DNA of 64,000 bases from Escherichia coli (GTDB lineage: Bacteria; Pseudomonadota; Gammaproteobacteria; Enterobacterales; Enterobacteriaceae), in NCBI RefSeq assembly GCF_003019035.1, contig NZ_CP027447.1; one strand, written 5' to 3'. Position 1 is the stretch's first letter; each line of letters starts with the position of its first letter. Shown here piece by piece: positions 38,019-39,299 of the stretch. A program made the position numbers and the translations under genes. A model generated the notes under the pieces. It ran no database searches and had not been told where the DNA came from. It saw only the letters and a list, made by a program, of their open reading frames with translations.

Positions 38019-39299
38019 TTAACCCTGCAGCAGAGACAGAACCTGCTGCGGTACCTGGTTAGCTTTGGACAGCACGGAGTTACCTGCCTGCTGGATGATC
38101 TGCGCTTTCGACATGTTGGACACTTCGGTCGCATAGTCGGCGTCCTGAATACGGGACTGCGCTTCGGACAGGTTGGTAGTGGTGTTGTTCAGGTTGGTGA
38201 CTGCGGAATCCAGACGGTTTTGAACGGCACCGAGGGAGGAGCGGAAAGTATCAACCTGTGCAATAGCTTTGTCTAAAAGTGCCAGTGGATCAGCAGTGGA
38301 AGCCCCAGTAAATTCATCAGCCGTATCCAGATCAATGGTCTGAGCAATATCGGTTGGTGCAGCAGTGGACTGGTTTTTTACACCATCTGTAATTTCATAA
38401 TTCTTACCCTGAACGGTAGCGAAACCAACGGCCTCTCCGTCAGAATTAGCAGCAACTTTAATCAACGTATCATCTTTGGTAGCGCCGGTAATATCACCGC
38501 CTGAATAAGTAATATCCGTTTTATTAAGAGTTACAGTCCCGTCATCTGCAACAGATGCAGCGTAATTATCACTACCATAGCTAACAACATAGTTCTCAGT
38601 TGCCGCACCATCTTTGTCTAAGATATTGTGCAACGTTAAAGAACTTGCATTAACCTTTTGCCCCAAAGCAGTACCAATATCTGTTGCTGCTGCATCCAGA
38701 TCCACTTTAACTGGCGCGGCTGAACCATCGCCGACCTGCGTCACTGTATCGCTTAATTTTAGCGCCCCACCGGCAACACTAAAACCACTTAAACCAAGGG
38801 CAGAAGAGTCTATTTTCTGCAAATCGATAGAGATGGTCTGCCCATCATTCGCGCCAACCTGAATATTCAGAGAACCGTTTTTAGCCAGCACGTTCACGCC
38901 GTTGAACTGGGTCTGACCAGAGACACGATCGATTTCAGCCAAGCGGGATTTGATTTCGTCCTGGATTGAAGACAGGTCGGAATCAGAGTTGGTACCAGTG
39001 GTTGCCTGCACAGTCAATTCACGAACACGCTGCAGGTTGTTGTTGATTTCAGACAGTGCGCCTTCAGTGGTCTGCGCCAGAGAGATACCGTCGTTGGCGT
39101 TACGTGCGGCCTGAGTCAGACCTTTGATGTTAGAAGTGAAGCGGTTAGCAATCGCCTGGCCCGCAGCGTCATCTTTAGCGCTGTTAATGCGCAGACCAGA
39201 AGAGAGGCGCTCGATAGAAGTCGACAGCGCAGACTGGTTTTTGTTGATGTTGTTCTGAGTGATCAGCGAGAGGCTGTTGGTATTAATGACTTGTGCCAT
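38019..39299 (-). CDS. fliC: Flagellin FliC (426 aa; non-K-12 H-antigen variant)
   Basis: ORF MAQVINTNSLSLITQNNINKNQSALSTSIERLSSGLRINSAKDDAAGQAIANRF... to ...VPQQVLSLLQG; conserved termini with variable central domain; start at MAQVIN within track ORF. Confidence 0.95.
   Translation of the reverse strand: MAQVINTNSLSLITQNNINKNQSALSTSIERLSSGLRINSAKDDAAGQAIANRFTSNIKGLTQAARNANDGISLAQTTEGALSEINNNLQRVRELTVQATTGTNSDSDLSSIQDEIKSRLAEIDRVSGQTQFNGVNVLAKNGSLNIQVGANDGQTISIDLQKIDSSALGLSGFSVAGGALKLSDTVTQVGDGSAAPVKVDLDAAATDIGTALGQKVNASSLTLHNILDKDGAATENYVVSYGSDNYAASVADDGTVTLNKTDITYSGGDITGATKDDTLIKVAANSDGEAVGFATVQGKNYEITDGVKNQSTAAPTDIAQTIDLDTADEFTGASTADPLALLDKAIAQVDTFRSSLGAVQNRLDSAVTNLNNTTTNLSEAQSRIQDADYATEVSNMSKAQIIQQAGNSVLSKANQVPQQVLSLLQG

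Follow-up and report, generated by a model that had tools for sequence, protein, structure and literature searches.

Which flagellar antigen a flagellin gene unlike that of Escherichia coli K-12 specifies, and by what route it came to differ, is the question raised by fliC in the window, the whole 64,000-nt stretch of E. coli DNA analyzed here. A preliminary description had placed a flagellin gene of 426 aa at this locus, and had proposed that it marks a non-K-12 serotype and fits the known role of fliC as a hotspot of recombination and horizontal exchange. Our full best explanation is that this is the chromosomal flagellin gene, that it carries the H42 allele, and that this allele is expressed and has been exchanged by recombination, a combined reading to which we assign a probability of roughly 0.93. 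The features on which the argument draws are collected in Table 1.

Table 1. Positions of fliC, its parts, its signals and its neighbors in the window.
Feature	Position	Strand	Basis or remark
fliA, sigma-28, which reads the fliC promoter	36980..37699	-	ORF, annotation; 98–100% identity to K-12 per 100-nt bin
fliC 3′ UTR, homologue of the K-12 sRNA FliX	37822..38013	-	97.4% identity to K-12 fliX (b4827) over 192 nt
fliC CDS, H42 allele (by sequence), 426-aa flagellin	38019..39299	-	Stop codon 38019–38021; ORF, Pfam, RefSeq CDS in SCU-301
Conserved C-terminal D1/D0 helical part, codons 340–426 plus stop	38019..38282	-	93% aa identity to K-12; Flagellin_C 340–424
Hypervariable central region, codons 177–339	38283..38771	-	About 21% identity to K-12; predicted surface-exposed outer domain defining the H antigen
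Conserved N-terminal D0/D1 helical part, codons 1–176	38772..39299	-	91.5% aa identity to K-12; Flagellin_N 5–141
H42 core tract of 776 nt, gene nt 322–1097	38203..38978	-	Zero differences between two H42 sub-alleles
Block divergent from K-12 (5′ four-fifths of fliC, intergenic region, all of fliD)	38200..40975	.	Flanks 97–100% identical
Sigma-28 (FliA) class-3 promoter of fliC, TAAAGGTT-N11-GACGATAA	39376..39402	-	Read from sequence
Sigma-28 consensus promoter of the divergent fliDST operon	39476..39502	+	Exact TAAACTTT-N11-GCCGATAA; 0.01 expected by chance
fliD, filament cap, 471 aa	39545..40960	+	Deep allelic class unlike K-12 (468 aa)
fliS, flagellin export chaperone	40976..41386	+	ORF, annotation; 97–99% identity to K-12

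Identity of the gene and comparison with K-12 FliC

We identified fliC as an intact ORF of 1281 nt that starts at ATG 39299 and encodes 426 aa plus a stop, and the RefSeq coding sequence in E. coli SCU-301 has identical coordinates and an identical product (WP_033869938.1). Pfam matched both ends of the protein, with PF00669 (Flagellin_N) at residues 5–141 (E = 6e-46, 156 bits vs. a cutoff of 26.6) and PF00700 (Flagellin_C) at residues 340–424 (E = 8e-32, 110 bits vs. a cutoff of 23), so that the position and length first given for the gene were confirmed. We rejected the start at TTG 39320 given in the list of open reading frames (ORF 38019..39320, 433 aa), because ATG 39299, seven codons downstream, gives MAQVINTNSL, the canonical enterobacterial flagellin N-terminus, and matches RefSeq. 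From the ORF list and annotation, the locus order was fliZ-fliA-fliC / fliD-fliS-fliT, with fliC lying between fliA and the divergent fliDST operon. By both of its Pfam regions, by its fold and by its place in the enterobacterial fliC locus, the product is a bacterial flagellin of the FliC/FljB family.

Over the 20 kb compared around fliC, the window was 100% identical to E. coli SCU-301 (NZ_CP051751.1), a human commensal isolated from a rectal swab of a healthy student and assigned to phylogroup F and ST967 (PMC11251922).

K-12 FliC (H48; PDB 8cxm) shares with the window flagellin its locus, orientation, promoter and 3′ UTR, as well as D0/D1 ends that are 91–93% identical in protein. Global alignment returned 294 identical residues in 507 columns, with 161 of 176 residues matching K-12 across aa 1–176 (91.5%) and 81 of 87 across aa 340–426 (93%), while only 52 of 244 aligned columns matched across aa 177–339 (about 21%); conserved D0/D1 ends around a different center, as the preliminary description had it, are thus what the alignment contains. 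Identity over the full length was absent, roughly 500 nt in the center of the gene being unalignable, and at the DNA level codons 1–176 were only about 86% identical to K-12. The length of 498 aa first given for K-12 FliC was also correct, as MG1655 fliC has 1497 nt and encodes 498 aa, in agreement with published work (PMC548302). The central region comprises 235 aa in K-12 and 163 aa in H42, making it 72 aa shorter in H42, with only weak local similarity between the two (31 bits). We considered whether the extra 72 aa of K-12 represent an internal duplication of an H42-like module, and rejected this, as neither center held a significant internal repeat. The 163 central residues of the window flagellin are rich in Ala, Asp, Thr and Gly and contain no Cys or Trp, and the GC3 of this center was 0.32, vs. 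0.57 and 0.64 in the gene ends; the K-12 center has a GC3 of 0.27.

Assignment to H42 and distribution of the allele

By sequence, we assign the fliC allele to the H42 type, because the same allele is found in genomes and isolates named O1:H42, APEC-O117H42 and O83:H42; the label was given by the depositors of three independent records, in some cases perhaps from an in silico call. Among complete genomes, 23 carried fliC at 100% nucleotide identity, and E. coli O1:H42 strain CLSC36 carried it at 99.9%, while the central 521 nt were 100% identical in APEC-O117H42. The proteins of an O83:H42 isolate and of UniProt Q842B2, which are members of the same 90% protein cluster, each lie one residue away. 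We take Q842B2 to be linked to the 2003 fliC reference allele set, and the reference alleles of E. coli fliC reportedly go back to Wang et al. (2003). Among published isolates, a chicken ST648 isolate was called H42 from its fliC allele (PMC12306158), and ST648 is grouped in phylogroup F (PMC11251922); our literature search returned no match that paired either ST967 or AY250... accessions with H42. As the flagellar antigen of K-12 is H48 (PMC548302), the suggestion of a non-K-12 serotype is supported by the names on the records that carry this allele.

The central 521 nt (38270–38790) occurred in 35 of 5426 complete E. coli genomes, at an identity of at least 99% in all, and a search of the same 5426 genomes, even in distant mode, returned no weaker matches or intermediates. 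The H42 center is hence a discrete and fairly rare allele class. N-terminal DNA of at least 95% identity was likewise found only in H42 carriers, the next band (90–95%) comprising 527 records. Carrier hosts and sources include humans, poultry, pigs, cattle, a dog, a giant panda, a pigeon and wastewater. Complete genomes hold two H42 sub-alleles, S411 (WP_033869938.1, the window type) and A411 (WP_000079766.1), of which the first was present on 989 contigs and the second on 721. The translation of WP_000079766.1 is identical to Q842B2 and differs from the window protein by one residue (S411A).

We also observed that E. coli WB61 (L008 5992–6966) carries an H42 fliC with an internal central deletion of roughly 306 nt, which leaves 975 nt and 324 aa and ends that are otherwise identical to those in the window.

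Expression signals and proposed working

The promoter of fliC has two mismatches to the sigma-28 consensus TAAAGTTT-N11-GCCGATAA, and both of its elements are identical to those of K-12. Downstream of the gene we found an intrinsic terminator with a GC-rich stem at 37844–37828 (CCCCGCCACCGGCGGGG, then TTTTTT), about 175 nt past the stop codon. No Rfam family matched the fliC 3′ UTR at gathering thresholds, and its homology to FliX was established by alignment. Taken together, the expression signals of fliC are intact and do not suggest a silent gene. The FliX-type 3′ UTR is polymorphic, being long in the window and in K-12, while 55989 and WB61 are without 156 nt between fliC and fliA.

The N- and C-terminal D0/D1 helices of flagellin form the filament core and the face recognized by TLR5; the N-terminal part also serves as export signal, and the C-terminal D1/D0 part is the region bound by the FliS chaperone. 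Against this background, we infer the expression of the H42 flagellin, its part in motility, its serological reaction and the roles of its domains as follows. FliA (sigma-28) would transcribe fliC from the class-3 promoter at 39402–39376, with the transcript ending at the terminator and carrying the FliX-like 3′ UTR. As in established accounts of flagellin, FliS would keep the 426-aa product competent for export, the flagellar type III apparatus would secrete it, and it would polymerize under the FliD cap. Helices within residues 1–176 and 340–426 would then form the D0/D1 filament core, including the part recognized by TLR5, and the central 163 residues would fold into an outer domain, compact and rich in beta structure, that lies on the surface of the filament and bears H42 specificity.

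Predicted outer domain and its relatives

A full-length AF2 model of the flagellin had a pLDDT of 77, with values of 83–96 over most of the center, where the outer-domain model was built on a shallow alignment of 12 sequences. The model contained long helices at residues 9–33, 41–101 and 106–129 and a beta-rich center. Foldseek searches with the full model returned only flagellin filaments as top matches (E about 5e-29), the best of which was a D3-deleted Salmonella FliC. With the central-domain model, only Salmonella FliC chains were confident matches (E = 4e-4 to 1e-2, TM = 0.37–0.45). By sequence, the best PDB matches to the whole protein were E. coli and Salmonella flagellins, and the best solved structure was E. 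coli K-12 8cxm (E = 1e-138), which aligned in two stretches and poorly in the center; the central 176 aa alone had no meaningful match among solved structures by sequence. Salmonella Typhimurium FliC (PDB 1ucu, 1io1) shares the overall flagellin architecture. Because the D3-deleted Salmonella protein (9iwq, 405 aa) was among the structures matched by the central-domain model, we tentatively read the H42 center as one compact beta domain of D2-like type that lacks a full D3, which would account for the shorter protein.

Among 1.84 billion representative sequences, relatives of the central segment fell into 24 clusters, with 39–55% identity over at least 100 aa and up to 61% over short fragments. 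H42-like central domains occur in other Proteobacteria, in flagellins of Edwardsiella tarda (WP_370549877.1), Alcaligenaceae (MDQ2149846.1), Pantoea piersonii and Enterobacteriaceae bacterium Kacie_13 (QLK61423.1), where the domain aligns over its full length and has motifs such as ALK.SD..TQVG, YVV..GSD.YA.SV and VQGKNY in common with H42. Since these nearest relatives outside E. coli reach only 39–55% identity to the H42 center over at least 100 aa, none of them was a plausible recent donor of the central region, and no donor can be named.

Extent of divergence from K-12 and evidence for recombination

We compared the locus with K-12 in bins of 100 nt. Identity was 95–100% up to about 38200, then 20–60% in the center of fliC, 76–93% in its 5′ part, 58–72% in the fliC-fliD intergenic region and 66–79% across the whole of fliD, before returning to 97–100% from 40976 onward. 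Divergence rises at ~38199–38223, and the last clustered mismatch lies at 40975, directly ahead of the fliS ATG (40976). The preliminary description was right to place the difference in the central domain, but its extent is greater. The block that differs from K-12 measures ~2.8 kb and comprises, besides the center of fliC, its 5′ part, the promoters between the two genes and fliD over its full length.

The neighboring fliD of K-12 belongs to another allelic class than the fliD found here. The window FliD shares 79.8% of its residues with the K-12 protein and 97.9% with that of strain 55989; the flagellin encoded by fliC in 55989 has 349 aa, as has been reported for H4 flagellin (PMC548302). 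At a nucleotide identity of at least 95%, this fliD class was present in 1323 of 5426 genomes (about a quarter), including strains named O104:H4 and O78:H4, and thus in far more genomes than carry H42. Because fliD and the intergenic DNA of the window are 95–97% identical to those of 55989, while the N-terminal DNA of fliC is only 87% identical, we read the locus as a mosaic of independently assorting segments rather than a single H42 cassette.

Comparison of the two H42 sub-alleles (the window vs. WP_000079766.1 in strains 510016, APEC-O117H42 and USMARC-49610) revealed 17–18 nt differences, all of which fell within gene nt 106–321 and 1098–1251. For these strain pairs, divergence amounted to 1.2–3% at the fliC ends, in the intergenic region and in fliD, fliS, fliT, amyA and the tcy genes. 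At the rate of these flanks, 12–21 differences would be expected in the core and none was observed (Poisson P = 4e-6 to 8e-10). Among genomes other than the full-length carriers, backbones of 98.1–98.5% identity covered 96% of a 12-kb query, in two to three pieces, which suggests that these similar backbones carry another fliC allele. Recombination or exchange of the H42 fliC is supported because a core with zero differences sits between flanks that are 1.5–3% divergent, the boundaries relative to K-12 are abrupt, and similar backbones carry an apparently different fliC; in this respect the earlier proposal of exchange at fliC is borne out. The H42 allele most probably came into its present backgrounds through homologous recombination, the crossovers having fallen in the conserved ends of the gene and in the flanks.

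Other features of the window

Between cheZ (3093–3737, minus strand) and flhB, we found two overlapping genes (776–3005, plus strand) in a place where K-12 has none. The first (776–2284, plus strand) encodes a 502-aa dGTP triphosphohydrolase with a match to the PADLOC model for anti-phage dGTPases (E = 8e-71), and the second (2253–3005, plus strand) encodes a 250-aa hypothetical protein with no PADLOC match. The pair looks like a small defense islet inserted in the flagellar/chemotaxis region. In the tar/cheW region, a second exact sigma-28 consensus site (TAAAGTTT-N11-GCCGATAA) at 9423–9449 on the minus strand overlaps the start of an Rfam match to the C0465 sRNA on the opposite strand (9439–9516, plus strand).

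Farther downstream, yedL (about 46273–46753) is annotated as frameshifted in SCU-301. Beyond 46891 the window no longer aligns to K-12, and fliE lies no more than about 300 nt farther on, from which we conclude that the K-12 pseudogene yedN is absent here; the yedM and intG remnants, which we take to follow yedN in K-12, are presumably absent as well. The DsrA sRNA (59698–59784, minus strand; Rfam RF00014, 102 bits) has the same place as in K-12, between dsrB and yedP/rcsA.

Discussion

Each part of the reading given at the outset has an alternative that must be weighed against it. With regard to expression, fliC-H42 might not be the expressed H antigen, either because the strain is non-motile or because a second, non-fliC flagellin sets its serotype, as in unilateral phase variation. 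Expression is unreadable from DNA alone, and about 10 of the 53 H types in E. coli are specified by loci other than fliC (PMC5343136, PMC548302), both of which speak for this alternative. We nevertheless consider it very unlikely, since promoter, ORF and terminator are intact, fliA, fliD, fliS, flhDC and the other fli/mot/che genes in the window are annotated as intact, and a search at blastn sensitivity (~65–70%) with the conserved N-terminal 510 nt matched a single place on the SCU-301 chromosome, with no second flagellin locus. This search covered the chromosome of SCU-301, and plasmid matches amounted to three places in the whole collection; a second flagellin locus that overrides fliC is thus unlikely. 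With regard to antigen type, the gene might encode a flagellin of an H type other than H42, whether unnamed or serologically distinct despite near-identity to alleles called H42 in silico. The H42 labels were indeed drawn from record names rather than from curated typing or serology, and yet the label recurs on three independently deposited records, 0 of 35 carriers of the central region are labeled with another H type, the lack of intermediates between this region and other alleles makes mis-binning unlikely, and a UniProt entry of the 2003 era, Q842B2, differs by only one residue. We regard a different H type as less likely still.

The least likely alternative, in our estimation, is that the difference from K-12 arose without allele exchange, through slow divergence of the locus by vertical descent within phylogroup F. 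Over a 12-kb backbone, 25 of 34 full-length carriers were at least 99.4% identical, which is compatible with clonal inheritance in one lineage. The remaining 9 of 34 were only 98.1–98.3% identical, however, and the 776-nt core is the same across these backbones in spite of the 1.7–1.9% by which they differ over 12 kb. Gradual divergence also sits poorly with the sharp boundaries at which identity to K-12 falls from 97–100% to 20–85%, one of them exactly at the fliD/fliS junction, and with a central GC3 far from that of the gene ends.

We therefore retain the reading of an expressed chromosomal fliC that carries an exchanged H42 allele. As fliC ranks among the best-known variable genes of E. 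coli and the allele is already catalogued, the finding is routine, and its practical value is for typing only, identifying an H42 E. coli with sequence matching SCU-301. There are two by-products, both mildly useful. One is the confident model of an outer domain that has no close solved relative, and the other is that divergence from K-12 spans both fliC and fliD and has its boundary at the start of fliS. For the biology of the flagellar antigen, the locus offers a clean textbook example of antigen-gene mosaicism, in which an identical antigenic core is set between flanks that are 2–3% different.
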